From a virus (lineage: Duplodnaviria > Heunggongvirae > Uroviricota > Caudoviricetes), in the IMG/VR virus record IMGVR_UViG_2671181012_000016: DNA of 5,397 bases; one strand, written 5' to 3'. The notes beneath the pieces are model-generated. The model saw nothing but the letters and a program-made list of their open reading frames with translations. It did not search any database and had not been told where the DNA came from. The translations under genes were made by a program, and so were the position numbers. Below, piece by piece: positions 1 through 5,397 of this stretch; positions within the stretch are counted from its first letter, which is position 1; each line of letters starts with the position of its first letter.

Positions 1-717
1 ATGGATGATAACAATATATCGGTCAAACAATATATTATTTATTCGGTTATGAATGATTTAATTACTGGTGGGCGAGAATCTTCAGTTTTAAACGTTCCTG
101 TATCTTTATCCCCGAGAAACTCCACCATAGAGGCTATAAAACGCTTGATTGATGATATAAGAGATTATTTTTATAAATCAAAATATCCAACAAGAGAATT
201 TCTTTTGTGTTATGGTTTAGAATCAAGTGAAATCGAGCAATATCCTATTGAATTAGCTGCAAAAATTGATTCATGTGGTTTTTTAATATTTGATAGTAAA
301 CTATCTTGTCAGGTTGTCGATACTTTAAATTCAGCAGTTGCATTGTACCATGTCGGAATGCGTAATCACGCAGACAAACTTACTAGAGTTGGTGTTGAGT
401 TATTGCTTAATGATTTTTTTGAAGAAATTATATCGAACCATGAAAAAGATAAAAAAATAAAGGATGCTTTATCCTTATCACAGAAAGAAAAAGCGCGCAA
501 ACCAAGAAATCATTATTACAATGAAGTTATGCACGTAATTAAACTAACATGGGAAAAGTACCCTAAAGCCAGTAAAACAGGTTTATTGAACGAGCTTTCT
601 GTTTACTACCATGGGAAAGTAAGTAAAAACACGCTAGATAGATGGATTAAAGAATCAGGGGCACAACCACCAAAGCCTGATAAATACTCTTCGTTTGAGC
701 TTGTTCACCCCCAATAG
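1..717 (+). CDS. hypothetical protein; AT-rich cargo gene with unassigned N-terminal region and C-terminal helix-turn-helix-like segment
   Basis: 238-codon ORF starting at the window edge, so the true start and RBS are not visible. Composition is clearly AT-rich (by-eye estimate ~30% GC against ~50% or more for the rest of the window). C-terminal segment KTGLLNELSVYYHGKVSKNTLDRWIKESG has helix-turn-helix character, preceded by a Lys-rich linker. No family recognised. Confidence 0.55.
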   Translation: MDDNNISVKQYIIYSVMNDLITGGRESSVLNVPVSLSPRNSTIEAIKRLIDDIRDYFYKSKYPTREFLLCYGLESSEIEQYPIELAAKIDSCGFLIFDSKLSCQVVDTLNSAVALYHVGMRNHADKLTRVGVELLLNDFFEEIISNHEKDKKIKDALSLSQKEKARKPRNHYYNEVMHVIKLTWEKYPKASKTGLLNELSVYYHGKVSKNTLDRWIKESGAQPPKPDKYSSFELVHPQ

Positions 718-797
718 CTGGCTACGGTATTTTAATAGCTGGCTATTGAGGCTAAATAACTGGTAACAGCCCCACAGCAACTGGCTATTGGGCTAAA
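713..797 (+). repeat. three phased direct repeats containing CTGGCTA (two longer copies CTGGCTATTG(A)GGCTAAA) in the intergenic region upstream of the excisionase-family gene
   Basis: AATAGCTGGCTA at 713-724 and 734-745; CTGGCTATTGAGGCTAAA at 739-756; CTGGCTATTGGGCTAAA at 781-797. Core copies start at 718, 739 and 781, i.e. spaced 21 and 42 bp (same helical face). Confidence 0.45.
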
Positions 798-822
798 AAC
801 AAAATACTCATTGATTGATATT

Positions 823-856
823 TATCACCGTTGTTACTTAGACGTACACGGTGATA
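823..856 (+). promoter_or_regulatory. inverted repeat TATCACCG / CGGTGATA overlapping the putative ribosome-binding site of the downstream HTH gene
   Basis: TATCACCG at 823-830 and its exact reverse complement CGGTGATA at 849-856, separated by 18 nt. The right arm contains GGTGA (850-854), the likely Shine-Dalgarno for the ATG at 860. Confidence 0.3.
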
Positions 857-859
857 GAT

Positions 860-1069
860 ATGAATTTAAAGAAATCTGATTTATCAACTGACCGCCTTAC
901 ACGTGCTGAAGCTGCTGCCTACCTTGGCGTTAACAATCAAACACTGGCGAACTGGGCGTGTACTGGCAAGGTAAAAATCCCTTTCCATAAGCTTGGTCGC
1001 AAAGTGCTGTATATGCGCACTGATCTCGATGCTTATCTTGCATCCACTCGCAGAACGCAGACGGTGTAA
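860..1069 (+). CDS. excisionase-family helix-turn-helix DNA-binding protein (AlpA/Vis-like regulator or excisionase)
   Basis: 69-aa product with LTRAEAAAYLGVNNQTLANWACTGKVKIPFHKLGRKVLYMRTDLDAYL, matching the pattern of excisionase-type (MerR-like) HTH domains (hydrophobic-EAA-LGVS-TLYRW-GK-P-K-GRK-RF-DL-WL). ATG at 860 is preceded by GGTGA; the ORF track starts at an in-frame GTG at 851. Stop TAA at 1067-1069. Confidence 0.8.
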   Translation: MNLKKSDLSTDRLTRAEAAAYLGVNNQTLANWACTGKVKIPFHKLGRKVLYMRTDLDAYLASTRRTQTV

Positions 1070-1083
1070 GGGGGAGTGATGGC

Positions 1084-1115
1084 ACATAAAACAAAGGCGA
1101 CCGGGGGCGGTCGCC
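1084..1115 (-). terminator. putative rho-independent terminator for the leftward small gene
   Basis: Perfect 8-bp GC-rich stem GGCGACCG (1096-1103) / CGGTCGCC (1108-1115) with a 4-nt loop. On the minus strand it is followed by the T-rich run TTTGTTTTATG (complement of 1084-1095). The + strand has no T-tract after the stem. Confidence 0.5.
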
Positions 1116-1209
1116 AATGGATACACACTAAACTTGAACGCATCACCAACAATGCCACATTTGCGGCTGGTGGGCAATGTGATCAGTGTGCTGGCTTGCT
1201 GGTTGGCTG

Positions 1210-1392
1210 TCAGCCTTTGGGTTCTATGCCTTCTTTGCGTAGCTTATCACGACAAGCATTTTTTACCCATGAGCTGAAATTACCAGGCCCAGCAACTTCG
1301 TTAATTTGTTGCAACAATGTGTCTTCGAAGCGGATGTTTTTCTTTGTGCTGCCGGAGCGATCAAATTTTGGTTTCACATTTTCTTCTTGCAT
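1210..1392 (-). CDS. small ribbon-helix-helix-like DNA-binding protein (putative repressor)
   Basis: 60-aa ORF convergent with the HTH gene. KKNIRFEDTLLQQINEVAGPGNFSSWVKNACRDKL fits a beta-strand/helix/helix (Arc/CopG-type) pattern. Its start codon abuts the palindromic operators and a terminator lies downstream. No clear Shine-Dalgarno, and a long + strand ORF overlaps it, so coding status is uncertain. Confidence 0.5.
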   Translation of the reverse strand: MQEENVKPKFDRSGSTKKNIRFEDTLLQQINEVAGPGNFSSWVKNACRDKLRKEGIEPKG

Positions 1393-1436
1393 TGGTACGT
1401 ACCATCGTTATAAACTGAAATTAAATGGTACGTACC
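1387..1436 (+). promoter_or_regulatory. putative rightward promoter of the replication operon with two palindromic operator sites
   Basis: Perfect 12-bp palindrome TGGTACGTACCA at 1393-1404 and a second copy of the core GGTACGTACC at 1427-1436, centres ~33 bp apart. Candidate -35 TTGCAT (1387-1392) and -10 TATAAA (1409-1414) with a 16-bp spacer that contains the first palindrome; the second palindrome lies just downstream of the predicted transcription start. Confidence 0.5.
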
Positions 1437-1465
1437 GCATTAAAAATACGCAACCATTAAATACA

Positions 1466-1502
1466 GCGAAGCCCGGTAGTGCGGGAACACTAACCGGGCT
1501 TC
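1466..1502 (+). other. long stable stem-loop in the leader of the rightward operon (possible RNA regulatory or processing element)
   Basis: GAAGCCCGGT (1468-1477) pairs perfectly with ACCGGGCTTC (1493-1502); the stem extends with AGTG (1478-1481) / CACT (1488-1491), leaving a 1-nt bulge and a 6-nt loop CGGGAA. No U-tract follows on the + strand. Confidence 0.4.
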
Positions 1503-1537
1503 TAACCACCAACGATAACGATAGTATCGAGGTAGCT

Positions 1538-1741
1538 ATGTTAAATCATACCACACACCCGCAAGGGCGGTACTCGCACGACCTGAATAAATACATCTGG
1601 CGTTTTATCGCCCTGAGCACGGCACAACCGCGCGTGATTACCATTGAGGCCACCAGCGAACAGGAAGCACGCCAGCAATCCCCGGCTGGCTACGTGATGG
1701 TATTCGCCGCCCGTATTCGTCAGGGGGTGTGCCATGCCTGA
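1538..1741 (+). CDS. small hypothetical protein, first gene of the replication operon (possibly Icd-like; tentative)
   Basis: ATG at 1538 preceded by GAGG (1528-1531). 67-aa product MLNHTTHPQGRYSHDLNKYIWRFIALSTAQPRVITIEATSEQEARQQSPAGYVMVFAARIRQGVCHA. The stop overlaps the next start (ATGCCTGA). The Icd-like assignment is from memory of small proteins at this position in P4-like elements and is unverified. Confidence 0.55.
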   Translation: MLNHTTHPQGRYSHDLNKYIWRFIALSTAQPRVITIEATSEQEARQQSPAGYVMVFAARIRQGVCHA

Positions 1742-2054
1742 TATGTCAAATTACCAGTACCTGATTAATCCGCATTTTAACTGTGAGCATGATATTGCTA
1801 AAAAGGTTTATTCCGCTGCTGATGGGGCTACTGACAATATATCAATGGCTGTTGCGTCAATTGGTAGCCTGATGTGGCATGCGTCAGAAAATGAGGACTA
1901 TGACGAAAAGGCCATGCGCATTGATATGGGTAATATCGGTTTGTTACTGGCAATGCTTGGGCAGTTTGATATTTCGTTACGGTGCACCATTGAAAATGCC
2001 ACAGATGCATTAAATGCCATAAAGAAAGCGAATACTGATTCAAATCGGGGATAA
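1734..2054 (+). CDS. hypothetical protein
   Basis: 106-aa ORF; ATG at 1734 preceded by GGGGG (1723-1727) and overlapping the upstream stop by 8 nt (translational coupling). No recognisable motif. Confidence 0.6.
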   Translation: MPDMSNYQYLINPHFNCEHDIAKKVYSAADGATDNISMAVASIGSLMWHASENEDYDEKAMRIDMGNIGLLLAMLGQFDISLRCTIENATDALNAIKKANTDSNRG

Positions 2055-2060
2055 ATAATC

Positions 2061-2360
2061 ATGAGAACATATTTATCTGGCTTGACTGCCAGCGGTTATG
2101 CACACCCCAAAATTATCCCCGGCGCTATTTATCTGGATAAGAACGGTAACAGAGTAACGGTAAAAGAACTGATGTTTGACCGTGTGTATTTTATTCGTGA
2201 TGGCTATTCATTTCATAGTTCGCTGAACGTGGAGATCTTTATTAGCAGATTCCGGCGGGAAATCCCGACTTCCAGAAATAACCATGTGTCACGTGTGGAT
2301 GTGGATAAAAAACTGCAGGAACTGAAAAACATGATTGCCGCGTGGAGAGAGCCGAAATGA
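2061..2360 (+). CDS. hypothetical protein
   Basis: 99-aa ORF starting 6 nt after the preceding stop. Its stop TGA (2358-2360) overlaps the ATG (2357-2359) of the replication gene as ATGA. No recognisable motif. Confidence 0.6.
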   Translation: MRTYLSGLTASGYAHPKIIPGAIYLDKNGNRVTVKELMFDRVYFIRDGYSFHSSLNVEIFISRFRREIPTSRNNHVSRVDVDKKLQELKNMIAAWREPK

Positions 2361-4174
2361 AAAAAGCGCCAAATTTAAAACACCAGCCGCGTGACAAAAT
2401 GACGGAAGTCATCATTTTTGCGGGTAGTGATGCGTGGGCACATGCGAAGCAGTGGCAGGAACAGGACGGGCGACTGGCTGGCGATAACGTGCCACCTGTC
2501 TGGCTTGGAGAGCAACAACTTGCCGAACTGGACAACCTGCAAATCGTACCGGACGGACGCTATCGCGTGCGTCTCTACCAGGCGGGGTTATTGCGTCCGG
2601 GGCTTGTTAATACCATCGGGCAGAAACTGGCAGCGGCAGGTGTCAGGGATGCTGATTATTATCCTGAAGGAATGCACAGCCAGAAACGGGAGAACTGGCG
2701 CGAATATCTGGAACGTGAACGGGCAGAGCAGGCGGAAAAGAAAAAGGTAGTTGAACTGCCTGTAAAGAAAAAAGAGCGGGTAAAAGACGATAACGCTTCA
2801 TCACTGGCGCTTAACCAGATGGGAGCAAGTCAACGCGGCGAAGTTCTCCTGGCACATTATGGCGGTGAACTGGCGATTCATGCTGACTCTGACACTGTTC
2901 ACCATTACAACGGCGTTGTATGGGAGCCAGTACAGGATAAAGAATTACAGCGAGCTATGGCACAGATTTTCATTGATGCGGAGATCAGCTATTCGCAGAA
3001 CGCCATTAAATCGGCGGTCGATACCATGAAGTTAAGTTTGCCTGTAATGGGGAATACAGCCCGTAACCTGATTGGATTCAGTAACGGGGTATTTGATACC
3101 AGAACAGGTAATTTTCGGGAGCATAACAAAAACGACTGGTTGTTAATTGCCAGTGAATTACCTTTCAGCCCACCAGCAGAGGGGGAAACGCTGGCAACAC
3201 ATGCGCCGAATTTCTGGAAGTGGTTACGCCGTTCGGTGGCTGAGAATGACCGCAAGGCGGATCGCGTACTGGCTGCATTATTCATGGTGCTGGCGAACCG
3301 GTACGACTGGCAGTTATTCATTGAGGTAACAGGTCCAGGGGGAAGTGGTAAAAGCGTGATGGCGGAGATTTGCACCATGCTGGCGGGTAAGGCCAACACA
3401 GTATCGGCAAGCATGAAGGCGCTGGAAGATGCAAGGGAACGCGCGTTAGTGGTTGGCTTTTCGCTGATTATCATGCCGGATATGACCCGCTACGCTGGTG
3501 ATGGGGCAGGGATTAAGGCTATTACAGGCGGTGACAAGGTGGCAATTGACCCGAAACACAAAGCCCCCTACTCAACGCGTATTCCGGCAGTAGTGCTGGC
3601 GGTTAACAATAACGCCATGTCATTCAGTGACCGCAGCGGGGGGATCTCGCGCCGTCGGGTGATATTCAATTTTTCGGAAGTTGTACCGGAGAACGAACGC
3701 GATTCCATGCTGGCAGAAAAAATAGAAGGAGAGCTGGCGGTTGTGATTCGCCACCTGCTTACTCGTTTTTCTGACCAGGACGAAGCTAAACGCCTGCTGT
3801 ATGAGCAGCAGAAATCAGAAGAAGCTCTGGTGATAAAACGCGAGGGCGATTCGCTGGTGGACTTCTGCGGCTATCTCATGTCGTCGGTAATGTGTGATGG
3901 CCTGTTAGTGGGTAATGCTGAAATTGTGCCATTCAGCCCGCGCAGGTATCTCTATCATGCCTATCTGGCTTATATGAAGGCACATGGGTTTGGTAAACCT
4001 GTAACACTGACGCGCTTCGGTAAAGATATGCCGGGGGCAATGGCGGAATATGGCAGGGAGTATATGAAACGGAAAACGAAGCACGGTTTGCGTTCAAACG
4101 TGAAACTGACGGAGGAATCAGAAGACTGGATGCCGTCATGTGTATCGGTCACTAATGACGATAGCAAAAATTAA
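2357..4174 (+). CDS. P4 alpha-like replication initiation protein (phage/plasmid primase-helicase family, SF3 helicase-type P-loop NTPase)
   Basis: 605-aa product from ATG 2357 with RBS GGAGAG (2344-2349); the ORF track starts at an in-frame GTG at 2342. Walker A motif GPGGSGKS encoded at 3332-3355, followed by a hydrophobic stretch ending in D (LIIMPD), a Walker B candidate. A charged Lys/Glu-rich linker (~2690-2790) separates an N-terminal ~110-aa region from the NTPase region. The iteron array immediately downstream matches the arrangement of P4 alpha and crr. Confidence 0.8.
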   Translation: MKKAPNLKHQPRDKMTEVIIFAGSDAWAHAKQWQEQDGRLAGDNVPPVWLGEQQLAELDNLQIVPDGRYRVRLYQAGLLRPGLVNTIGQKLAAAGVRDADYYPEGMHSQKRENWREYLERERAEQAEKKKVVELPVKKKERVKDDNASSLALNQMGASQRGEVLLAHYGGELAIHADSDTVHHYNGVVWEPVQDKELQRAMAQIFIDAEISYSQNAIKSAVDTMKLSLPVMGNTARNLIGFSNGVFDTRTGNFREHNKNDWLLIASELPFSPPAEGETLATHAPNFWKWLRRSVAENDRKADRVLAALFMVLANRYDWQLFIEVTGPGGSGKSVMAEICTMLAGKANTVSASMKALEDARERALVVGFSLIIMPDMTRYAGDGAGIKAITGGDKVAIDPKHKAPYSTRIPAVVLAVNNNAMSFSDRSGGISRRRVIFNFSEVVPENERDSMLAEKIEGELAVVIRHLLTRFSDQDEAKRLLYEQQKSEEALVIKREGDSLVDFCGYLMSSVMCDGLLVGNAEIVPFSPRRYLYHAYLAYMKAHGFGKPVTLTRFGKDMPGAMAEYGREYMKRKTKHGLRSNVKLTEESEDWMPSCVSVTNDDSKN

Positions 4175-4184
4175 ACTTATGGAA

Positions 4185-4417
4185 TAACTGTTCACCACTG
4201 TTCACTCTGTCATAAATATCTTTTATATCAGTATATTATAGGGTGAACAGTTATTTATGAACTGTTCACCAAACTATTCACTGTTCACCTTTTTGATTGT
4301 TTATTGAGCTTCAAGGGTGAACAGTGGTGAATAGTTGGTGAATAGTTTTTGTGAAACTGTTCACCCCTTAACATTATGAATTAAAAGATAAAATATCAAA
4401 AGGTGAACAGGTGAAGG
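4185..4417. repeat. replication-origin iteron array (P4 crr/ori-like), TGTTCACC octamers in both orientations with AT-rich spacers
   Basis: Perfect TGTTCACC at 4189-4196, 4263-4270, 4282-4289 and 4358-4365. Perfect inverted GGTGAACA at 4252-4259, 4316-4323 and 4402-4409. Variants TGTTCACT 4199-4206, TATTCAC 4275-4281, GGTGAATA 4326-4333 and 4337-4344, GTGAAGG 4411-4417. AT-rich stretches at 4211-4240 and 4371-4400. Two tandem ~65-75 bp units (4186-4260, 4261-4324) share the layout ACTGTTCACC ... CTGTTCAC ... AT-rich ... GGGTGAACAG. Confidence 0.85.
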
Positions 4418-4461
4418 GTTAAAACGCAAAAATTTTAATTTACTGCTGTGAGATAAAGCCT

Positions 4462-4707
4462 ATGACAGCGAAGCACACAAAAAAATCACAATCGCACGCC
4501 CTTGATTTGACGGAACACTGGTTAAGGGTGTCGATAAAAATCATCGACCGCAACGCCGGGGAAGGATATGCGAAAGCACATCCCGAACTGATTAGCGCAT
4601 TCATGACAACGGCAGCTGCAAACTTTGCCACGCTGACAGAGCGGGAGATTGCCGAAGCGGAACAGGTAACAACCATCAACGTTAAAACCGGAGAGGTGAA
4701 ATCATGA
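4462..4707 (+). CDS. hypothetical protein
   Basis: 81-aa ORF with a weak RBS. Its stop TGA (4705-4707) overlaps the ATG (4704-4706) of the SSB gene as ATGA, which supports it being a real coupled gene. Confidence 0.5.
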   Translation: MTAKHTKKSQSHALDLTEHWLRVSIKIIDRNAGEGYAKAHPELISAFMTTAAANFATLTEREIAEAEQVTTINVKTGEVKS

Positions 4708-5114
4708 CAGCACAGATAGCCGCTTACGGGCGGCTGGTGGACGACCCGCAGGTAAAACAGACCAGCAAGGGCACACCGATGACGCTGGCGCGTATGGCGG
4801 TATCACTGCCATGCAGTCAGGCACAGGACGGACAGGCGACGTTATGGTTATCGGTCATCGCATTTGGCAAACAGGCCGACCAACTGGCAGGACATGAGAA
4901 AGGCAACGTAATCAGCGTATCCGGCGTGATGCAGATAAGCCAGTGGACCGGACAGAACGGGGAGACGCGTCAGGGTTATCAGGTCATTGCCGACAGCGTA
5001 ATCAGTGCGAAAACGGTGCGACCAGGCGGGAACAGACGCAAAACCACAGGCACACAGGGTAATCAGCCACCAGCGGGAGGCGATGACCCTTACGGTGATG
5101 ATATTCCGTTCTGA
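4704..5114 (+). CDS. ssb: single-stranded DNA-binding protein (SSB)
   Basis: 136-aa product with strong RBS GGAGAGG (4689-4695). The N-terminal ~110 aa have SSB/OB-fold character (IAAYGRLVDDPQVKQTSKGTPMTLARMAVSL ... WLSVIAFGKQADQLAGHEKGNVISVSGVMQISQWTGQNGETRQGYQVIADSVI). A Gly/Pro/Gln-rich linker leads to the acidic C-terminal tail DDPYGDDIPF, matching the DDDIPF tail of E. coli SSB. Confidence 0.9.
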   Translation: MTAQIAAYGRLVDDPQVKQTSKGTPMTLARMAVSLPCSQAQDGQATLWLSVIAFGKQADQLAGHEKGNVISVSGVMQISQWTGQNGETRQGYQVIADSVISAKTVRPGGNRRKTTGTQGNQPPAGGDDPYGDDIPF

Positions 5115-5124
5115 GGGGGTGACG

Positions 5125-5397
5125 ATGGTACATGACCGCATAGCGGAAGAACTCGAAGCGAAAGGATTTTACCGGAGGGCGGCGGCGCGATGGGGTGAAG
5201 TCATGATGCTGGTGGAGACAGACAAGGAACGGCATCACATCACGATGCGACGGCTGGAATGTTCCAGGAAGGCACAGAGGCCACCGGAGCCGCCTGATAA
5301 TTTCGGAGACCTGAGAAATGCAGTTAATCGCACTTGTGCCGAAATGGGTATAGATGGTGCTGGTGATGAAATATGGCGCAATTACCAGGACAGCTAA
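5125..5397 (+). CDS. PerC-family transcriptional regulator-like protein
   Basis: 90-aa product from ATG 5125 with RBS GAGGGGG (5113-5119) just after the SSB stop. N-terminal IAEELEAKGFYRRAAARWGEVM resembles, from memory, the N-terminal WRRAA-containing motif of PerC/Pch regulators. Stop TAA at 5395-5397. The in-frame upstream extension to 5005 overlaps ssb and is not used. Confidence 0.6.
   Translation: MVHDRIAEELEAKGFYRRAAARWGEVMMLVETDKERHHITMRRLECSRKAQRPPEPPDNFGDLRNAVNRTCAEMGIDGAGDEIWRNYQDS

Follow-up and report, generated by a model that had tools for sequence, protein, structure and literature searches.

The DNA analysed here, referred to as the window, is the whole stretch of 5,397 nucleotides of IMG/VR virus record IMGVR_UViG_2671181012_000016. 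It contains a gene for a 605-aa replication protein, Rep, and, directly after the gene, a cluster of short repeated octamers (iterons). This region is, with high probability, the replicon of an Escherichia coli island of the phage-inducible chromosomal island (PICI) or capsid-forming PICI (cfPICI) type, in which a self-loading initiator-helicase gene is followed directly by its cognate origin. From its N-terminus on, Rep very probably comprises a non-catalytic domain, a D5_N domain, a superfamily 3 (SF3) helicase and a winged-helix origin-binding domain of the P4 alpha type. That the array is the cognate origin had been proposed in an earlier reading of the letters of the window (the original prediction), and was upheld as very probable by the conserved arrangement of the array, by the co-variation of iteron and binding domain, and by the match to the origin of the PICI EcCICFT073. 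The features of the replicon are listed below.

2357..4174, + strand: rep gene, 605-aa initiator-helicase (RefSeq relatives are labelled 'DNA primase family protein')
2357..2701, + strand: N-terminal domain (MKxAPNLK...IIFAGSDAW...VRLYQAG), 115 aa, without primase motifs
2840..3229, + strand: D5_N domain, aa 162-291 (PF08706, E 1.4e-13)
3329..3661, + strand: SF3 ATPase core (Pfam DUF5906 and PPV_E1_C; SaPI5 PriRep 7OLA, E 2e-10)
3332-3355, + strand: Walker A, GPGGSGKS
3464-3481, + strand: Walker B, LIIMPD
3596-3613, + strand: motif C, LAVNNN
3644-3661, + strand: arginine pair, ISRRRV
3842..4135, + strand: winged-helix origin-binding domain, aa 496-593 (Pfam Pox_D5; phmmer 1KA8)
4067..4099, + strand: putative specificity segment KRKTKHG-LRSN, aa 571-581, which tracks the iteron classes
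4189..4417, no strand: origin array, 12 iterons, 229 bp, beginning 15 bp past the rep stop codon
+ iterons of the array: 4189, 4199 (one mismatch, TGTTCACT), 4263, 4275 (two mismatches, TATTCACT), 4282, 4358
Minus-strand iterons of the array: 4242, 4316, 4326 and 4337 (one mismatch each, TATTCACC), 4402, 4410 (two mismatches, CCTTCACC)
4207..4241, no strand: candidate site of unwinding, AT-rich spacer 1 of 35 bp (20% GC) with convergent iterons on its two sides
4290..4315, no strand: central spacer, 26 bp, 27% GC, near the dyad centre of the array
4366..4401, no strand: candidate site of unwinding, AT-rich spacer 2 of 36 bp (17% GC) with convergent iterons on its two sides

Probable origin array

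The octamer TGTTCACC occurs without mismatch nine times in the 5,397-bp window against 0.23 copies expected, and none of 200 shuffled sequences reached nine. Seven of the nine copies are at 4189-4409, four direct and three inverted, exactly as originally described, and the count of at least four variants was exceeded by one, three copies having a single mismatch and two, both in register, having two mismatches. Sites with at most one mismatch number 10 in 251 bp and 4 in the other 5,146 bp. The AT-rich array, estimated earlier at about 230 bp and placed right after the gene, has a GC content of 31%, the window one of 46.5% and the spacers of the array 17-27%. Identification of the octamer as the type I iteron of P4 was made in the original prediction and proved correct, since the P4 GenBank record labels its copies in ori as well as those in crr 'ori type 1 repeat'.

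The array is one compact cluster; its iterons form three convergent groups, and these surround two spacers that would melt easily. Read from left to right it consists of two + iterons, the 35-bp AT-rich spacer, one - iteron, 13 bp, three + iterons, 26 bp, three - iterons, 13 bp, one + iteron, the 36-bp AT-rich spacer and two - iterons. Spacer 1 shares first place among the least stable 30-bp stretches of the window (-28.5 kcal/mol, mean -41.5, standard deviation 4.0) and spacer 2 is the third least stable, both being more than 2.8 standard deviations under the mean. There is also a weak dyad symmetry centred near 4303.5 (50% complementarity over 122 pairs, shuffle 95th percentile 0.474). A scan of the array for promoters and terminators found no promoter-like site in or near it and no terminator-like site.

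Positions 4314-4420 of the window are collinear, almost without gaps, with P4 ori 9308-9415, both having three - iterons, one + iteron, an AT-rich stretch and two - iterons. Within this alignment spacer 2 falls on P4 ori 9361-9395 and is thus the positional equivalent of the AT-rich stretch of P4 ori. The division of the array into two tandem units of about 70 bp plus a partial third, likened originally to the repeats of crr, did not hold. Tandem Repeats Finder reported no such period, and the self-identity of the array at a shift of 74 bp (0.379) is inside the shuffle range (mean of maxima 0.368, 95th percentile 0.398). The proposed units are mutually 51-61% identical compared with 49-52% for shuffled units (shuffle maxima 56-59%), and only the first pair, at 61%, lies above its own shuffle maximum, marginally; the units of P4 crr are 82% identical. 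The resemblance to crr failed further in that the right half of the array follows P4 ori rather than crr and that complete relatives show no ori/crr split.

In all origins of the TGTTCACC class the last iteron is succeeded by an AT-rich tail that is conserved (4418-4445 in the window), with CTTAAACGCATATTTTTTAATTTT in relatives L003-L011 and GGTTAAAACGCAAAAATTTTAATTT in the window. The two isolated perfect copies of TGTTCACC outside the array, at 702-709 and 2896-2903, are in the same places in the island of E. coli A41 (locus L001, 12702 and 15109). The copy at 2896 is probably coincidental, because it overlaps D5_N codons for T-V-H-H that are conserved also in relatives with other iterons. 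The copy at 702 is at the end of a 238-aa open reading frame (ORF), just ahead of the region upstream of alpA.

Helicase and origin-binding parts of Rep

The boundaries of the rep coding sequence are identical in the annotation of E. coli A41. Pfam searches of Rep gave D5_N (aa 162-291), DUF5906 (aa 325-433) and Pox_D5 (aa 496-591), with PPV_E1_C also matching in the ATPase core, and the Walker A, Walker B, motif C and arginine-pair helicase motifs are all intact. The origin-binding domain was matched by phmmer to 1KA8, from P4 alpha (E 7.6e-24, aa 497-593 against residues 2-99), and Rep shares 50% identity with P4 alpha along the 451 aa of positions 145-595. The protein was therefore rightly called alpha-like, as concerns its helicase and origin-binding parts. 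The domain search suggested at that time recovered the SF3 and D5_N domains, and returned neither Toprim nor zinc ribbon from Pfam or NCBIfam, even at E = 10. Rep has no CxxC motif, and it lacks EGYATA, as had been stated.

Rep and its iterons as a probable cognate pair

Loci with relatives of the Rep C-terminal domain, 76 in number, were compared. Five octamers (TGTTCACC, TCTCCACC, TGTCCGCC, TGTCCACC and TGTCTACC) were found in one arrangement downstream of rep across Enterobacterales, and the five iteron classes correspond to five variants, in sequence and in length, of the segment equivalent to aa 571-581. The binding domain is nearly invariant outside this segment and the C-terminal tail. 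Two natural swaps were seen, one between L013/L015 (TGTTCACC) and L078 (TCTCCACC), whose proteins are 95% identical, and one between L003 and L026 (TGTCTACC), with proteins 90% identical. In both pairs the iterons differ and divergence of the proteins is limited to roughly the last 60-90 residues, so the protein end and the origin have been exchanged together. In origins of the TGTTCACC class from different genera the iteron columns are 81% conserved compared with 55% for other columns (p = 2e-9), and spacer lengths are conserved among relatives while the sequence of spacer 1 varies. Judged from these sequence comparisons, Rep and the array are a cognate pair.

In winged-helix proteins the beta2-beta3 wing, together with helix 3, contacts DNA (PMC2777425), and by canonical winged-helix order the variable segment at aa 571-581 would be this beta-hairpin wing. 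A truncated relative in an Enterobacterales metagenome-assembled genome (L056, contig 9) has a tandem expansion, AYMAYMAYMAYMAYM, in helix 2 of the binding domain and adjoins L078, an intact further copy which that contig also carries. The Pantoea, Erwinia and Mixta loci L058-L073 encode alpha-like proteins of 770-776 aa with binding domains about 50% identical to that of the window. No octamer repeated within 450 bp downstream of the gene was found at these loci, so their origin must be elsewhere or be built on an undetected repeat.

N-terminal domain

The first 115 residues of Rep form a domain of their own, whose profile matched only 112 clusters among 1.84 billion representative proteins. 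Nearly all matches that cover the profile from its start have at most about 10 residues ahead of the domain. Full-length members continue with a D5_N/SF3, a DUF927 or an AAA_25 (RepA-like) module, fusions to DUF927 or AAA_25 being represented among proteins P0102, P0104, P0125, P0192 and P0196, and the domain is a shuffled module common to three types of replicative helicase. The first eight residues, MKxAPNLK, are conserved throughout the family, with A4 invariant and P5 present in at least 90% of aligned members.

An AF2 model of the domain, made with 22 homologues, is a beta-alpha-beta sandwich with a predicted local distance difference test score (pLDDT) of 84. A Foldseek search of the model against PDB found nothing significant, and comparison of the domain profile with P4 Toprim gave no match. 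The positions that in Toprim carry a glutamate behind strand 1 and a DxD motif behind strand 3 are not acidic in any family member. Support for a Toprim fold is weak, and the domain is treated here as a putative non-catalytic module, possibly derived from Toprim.

Other N-terminal modules are found on the same helicase chassis, namely a helical module of about 110 aa, a plain Toprim (L024), and a zinc ribbon with Toprim (P4, Xenorhabdus, Pantoea). All of these swaps join at a conserved 'ALNQMGASQRGE' junction just upstream of D5_N. An alternative N-terminal module, type 2, gave nothing significant in Pfam.

Proposed mechanism and alternative explanations

Induction by a helper phage and AlpA-driven rightward transcription would come first. 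The C-terminal domain of Rep would then bind the iterons, as homology to P4 alpha and to the Rep of Staphylococcus aureus pathogenicity islands (SaPIs), together with the co-variation, suggests. By analogy with the same two proteins, head-to-head hexamers would form across the two AT-rich spacers and melt them, and Rep would load itself as the replicative 3'-5' helicase. Priming by host DnaG is likely, because Rep has no primase motif and its homologue in EcCICFT073, which has the same N-terminal domain, replicates a plasmid in plain E. coli given no more than its ori; elongation would be carried out by host Pol III.

Several points count against this interpretation. Binding, melting and replication are extrapolated from homologues with 48-50% identity. 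Shared ancestry is a partial confounder of the co-variation, although pairs of nearly identical proteins argue otherwise, and the placement of the wing is made less certain by the single-sequence AF2 model of the binding domain, which has a pLDDT of 35. An unusual activity may be concealed in the N-terminal domain. A divergent active primase in this domain, which would make Rep a complete primase-helicase like P4 alpha and host DnaG dispensable, is nonetheless improbable. A single-stranded DNA-binding protein (SSB) was considered as the compensating partner of Reps without a primase and was rejected as a general rule; ssb is downstream in 1 of 7 type-1 and 1 of 15 type-2 relatives, and compensation by SSB for the absent primase is not supported. 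The acidic tip of E. coli SSB binds replisome proteins. The island SSB is possibly an accessory factor at most, and not an obligatory partner, because ssb is absent beside most primase-less relatives.

Three other explanations of the region were weighed. That the array is a cis-acting enhancer like crr, looped to a true start elsewhere in the island as in P4, has a very slight chance of being correct: it agrees with the position of the array directly downstream of an alpha-like gene, which is exactly the place of crr in P4, with the similarity of the left part (4186-4255) to a crr unit in iteron order, and with the isolated perfect octamers at 702 and 2896. However, the complete A41 island and the packaged genome of vB_KppS-Ant each contain a single cluster, the right half of the array is collinear with P4 ori itself, AT-rich stretch included, no repeats in the style of the 120-bp crr repeats were found, and the equivalent array of EcCICFT073 is sufficient as an origin (PMC6092414). 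The octamer at 2896, moreover, falls on the conserved T-V-H-H codons, which occur also in relatives using other iterons. A mainly regulatory array, serving copy control by handcuffing or acting as a partition-like site, for example for the 81-aa, ssb and perC genes, has a slim chance. Plasmid iteron arrays serve copy control too, this array separates rep from the genes that follow, no terminator having been found, and the AT-rich tail after the last iteron is conserved; but no promoter-like site was detected in or near the array, the two spacers have the extremely low stability expected of unwinding elements, and the array is homologous to P4 ori and arranged as the EcCICFT073 origin (PMC6092414). 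The array may have a dual role, as origin and in regulation.

Decay of the module to a non-functional remnant is barely credible. Many database entries of the Rep family are partial or frameshifted and the prohead protease of the A41 relative is frameshifted, yet the rep ORF is intact with all helicase motifs, seven perfect iterons have been kept, 594 genomes carry the ori allele, mostly at 95-99% identity, and a close relative was recovered as the genome of induced particles. A functional rep-ori replicon of PICI/cfPICI type is the preferred explanation.

Genomic context

The remaining genes of the window are given below in order.

First gene: 238-aa ORF, nothing significant in Pfam
After the 238-aa ORF: AlpA-type helix-turn-helix (HTH) gene, identified by Pfam
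1210-1392, - strand: YlcI/DUF3950 gene
1538-1741: Icd-like gene
Between the Icd-like and DUF4222 genes: 106-aa ORF
Directly before rep: DUF4222 gene
3' of the array, before ssb: 81-aa ORF, nothing significant in Pfam
4704..5114, + strand: ssb (Pfam SSB, E 6e-16), with acidic C-terminal tip ...GDDIPF
5125-5397: perC, full-length PerC-family transcriptional activator (Pfam E 5e-42), closing the window

A 221-aa ORF at 1076-1741 in the mechanical ORF list is probably not a gene, the region being occupied by the YlcI/DUF3950 gene on the minus strand and the Icd-like gene. Upstream of the AlpA-like gene there are three direct copies of a motif of about 9-17 nt (AATAGCTGGCTA / CAACTGGCTA) at 708, 729 and 771, and an 18-nt inverted repeat (89% complementary, 814-831 / 848-865) lies across the alpA start. 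These copies and the inverted repeat are possibly operator sites for an island regulator. An extra small HTH gene 3' of alpA in the A41 relative is missing or diverged in the window. PerC homologues carried by PICIs can activate the locus of enterocyte effacement (LEE) pathogenicity island (PMC6092414). An Rfam scan of the window gave zero matches.

The window is the left arm of an E. coli phage satellite of PICI/cfPICI type. E. coli A41 is 96.5% identical over window positions 1-5032 and has an integrase directly upstream, its island lying between nfeF and tRNA-Ile and encoding capsid, protease, portal, connector, HNH and TerS/TerL proteins without tail genes. With the integrase taken from A41, the window ORFs and Pfam matches give the unidirectional order int - alpA - ... 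- pri-rep with ori directly 3' of rep, the layout by which PICIs are defined in PMC6092414. A relative of Rep, 74% identical, is encoded by vB_KppS-Ant, a 16.5-kb genome from induced particles. The capsid-forming set (capsid, protease, portal, connector, terminase) is present in both the A41 relative and vB_KppS-Ant; the window stops at perC. Other relatives, 99% identical, part from the window after position 4483.

The core set of P4-like satellites used by SatelliteFinder consists of the psu-delta-sid operon, epsilon/ash, alpA and alpha (PMC10085698). Identity as a P4-like satellite was rejected, as the annotated A41 relative is without sid, psu, delta and epsilon and carries capsid and terminase genes.

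Frequency and significance

The ori allele was found in 594 of 5,426 complete E. coli genomes (about 11%), mostly at 95-99% identity, and it carries no annotation. Some genomes have as many as six places that match the allele, which points to the co-residence of several islands sharing one Rep/ori specificity. For annotation, a 229-bp origin that is unannotated in RefSeq is supplied, together with a correction to a gene labelled 'DNA primase' in which no primase motif was found.

The design of PICI replicons and the homology of Pri-Rep and alpha have already been noted (PMC6092414; PMC10085698). As far as the searched literature shows, the new elements are that a PICI-type island shares the exact P4 iteron and ori arrangement, that a variable protein segment corresponds to the iteron octamer, that the protein end and origin are co-inherited as a cassette, and that the N-terminal module is a distinct non-catalytic domain family. 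A candidate recognition code emerges, in which each of the five octamers pairs with its own variant of a single short segment of the protein.

A primase-less relative of alpha raises the question of how such satellites get primers. It is suggested tentatively, as a possibility on the doubtful side, that the N-terminal domain is a non-catalytic adaptor, not described before, replacing the primase and that the shared P4 iteron and segment lead to cross-talk between satellite families. If so, an adaptor placed before three unrelated types of mobile-element helicase (D5/SF3, DUF927 and RepA/AAA_25) could recruit host primase or replisome, and these satellites would depend on host DnaG, unlike P4. 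P4-like satellites, these PICIs and co-resident copies could then fire or titrate each other's origins, with replication cross-talk or incompatibility between satellite families as the outcome, and a short C-terminal segment with its ori would form an exchangeable cassette by which specificity is reset.

Comparison with known systems

SaPI Rep is self-loading and has a winged helix, and its iterons are located 3' of rep in opposite orientations beside an AT-rich centre (PMC9371898). SaPI Rep/PriRep and the window Rep share an SF3 helicase with a C-terminal winged helix and short iterons right after rep. The sequence similarity is only distant, SaPI5 PriRep (7OLA) matching the ATPase core of the window protein at E 2e-10. 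SaPI iterons are 5-6 nt long, SaPIs carry a primase of the prim-pol type, separate or fused, and their single AT-rich centre contrasts with the two AT-rich spacers and three iteron groups of the window origin.

The neighbourhood of the EcCICFT073 replicon is the same as that of the window (ylcI, icd-like, DUF4222, rep, ori, small ORF, ssb, perC). Its Pri-Rep has the same architecture, and identity to the window Rep is 48% for the whole protein and about 73% for the N-terminal domain, whereas the origin-binding domain is much more divergent and has a different variable segment. The EcCICFT073 origin is directly 3' of rep, with iterons in the same order, orientation and spacing, but its iteron is TGTCTACC where that of the window is TGTTCACC. 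The EcCICFT073 rep-ori region maintains a thermosensitive plasmid in DH5alpha, and deletion of rep or ori abolishes this (Fillol-Salom et al. 2018, PMC6092414). In E. coli PICI origins, sets of iterons flank an AT-rich region 3' of rep (PMC6092414), and flanking sets of this kind are present in the window. EcCICFT073 belongs to the classical PICIs and carries genes for capsid remodelling; the window's closest full relative, in contrast, is capsid-forming.

P4 has 11 perfect copies of the octamer, all within ori and crr, and the octamer is identical to that of the window. Type I iteron clusters in both orientations around AT-rich DNA, characteristic of a P4-type origin, are likewise present in the window. 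The bipartite organisation of P4, in which ori and a crr of two 120-bp repeats are 4.5 kb apart, is replaced by one compact cluster in the window, and no second cluster was found in the complete A41 island or in vB_KppS-Ant; because these complete relatives hold only one cluster, the P4 ori/crr split is considered to be absent here. P4 crr and the array share a position directly downstream of an alpha-type gene, but in the window, unlike P4, no terminator was found between gene and array. P4 alpha has 777 aa, with a zinc ribbon (Zn_Ribbon_Prim, aa 30-66), Toprim_3 (aa 210-299) and the EGYATA motif, whereas the 605-aa Rep has the D5_N/SF3 core and 1KA8-type domain of the alpha family and an unrelated 115-aa domain in place of zinc ribbon and Toprim. 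The gene content of the island is PICI-like. An earlier description set the PICI origin apart as unique and saw in Pri-Rep no more than a distant relative of alpha. The P4 and enterobacterial PICI replication modules show clear homology, in binding domain and origin arrangement and, in the present island, also in the iteron.

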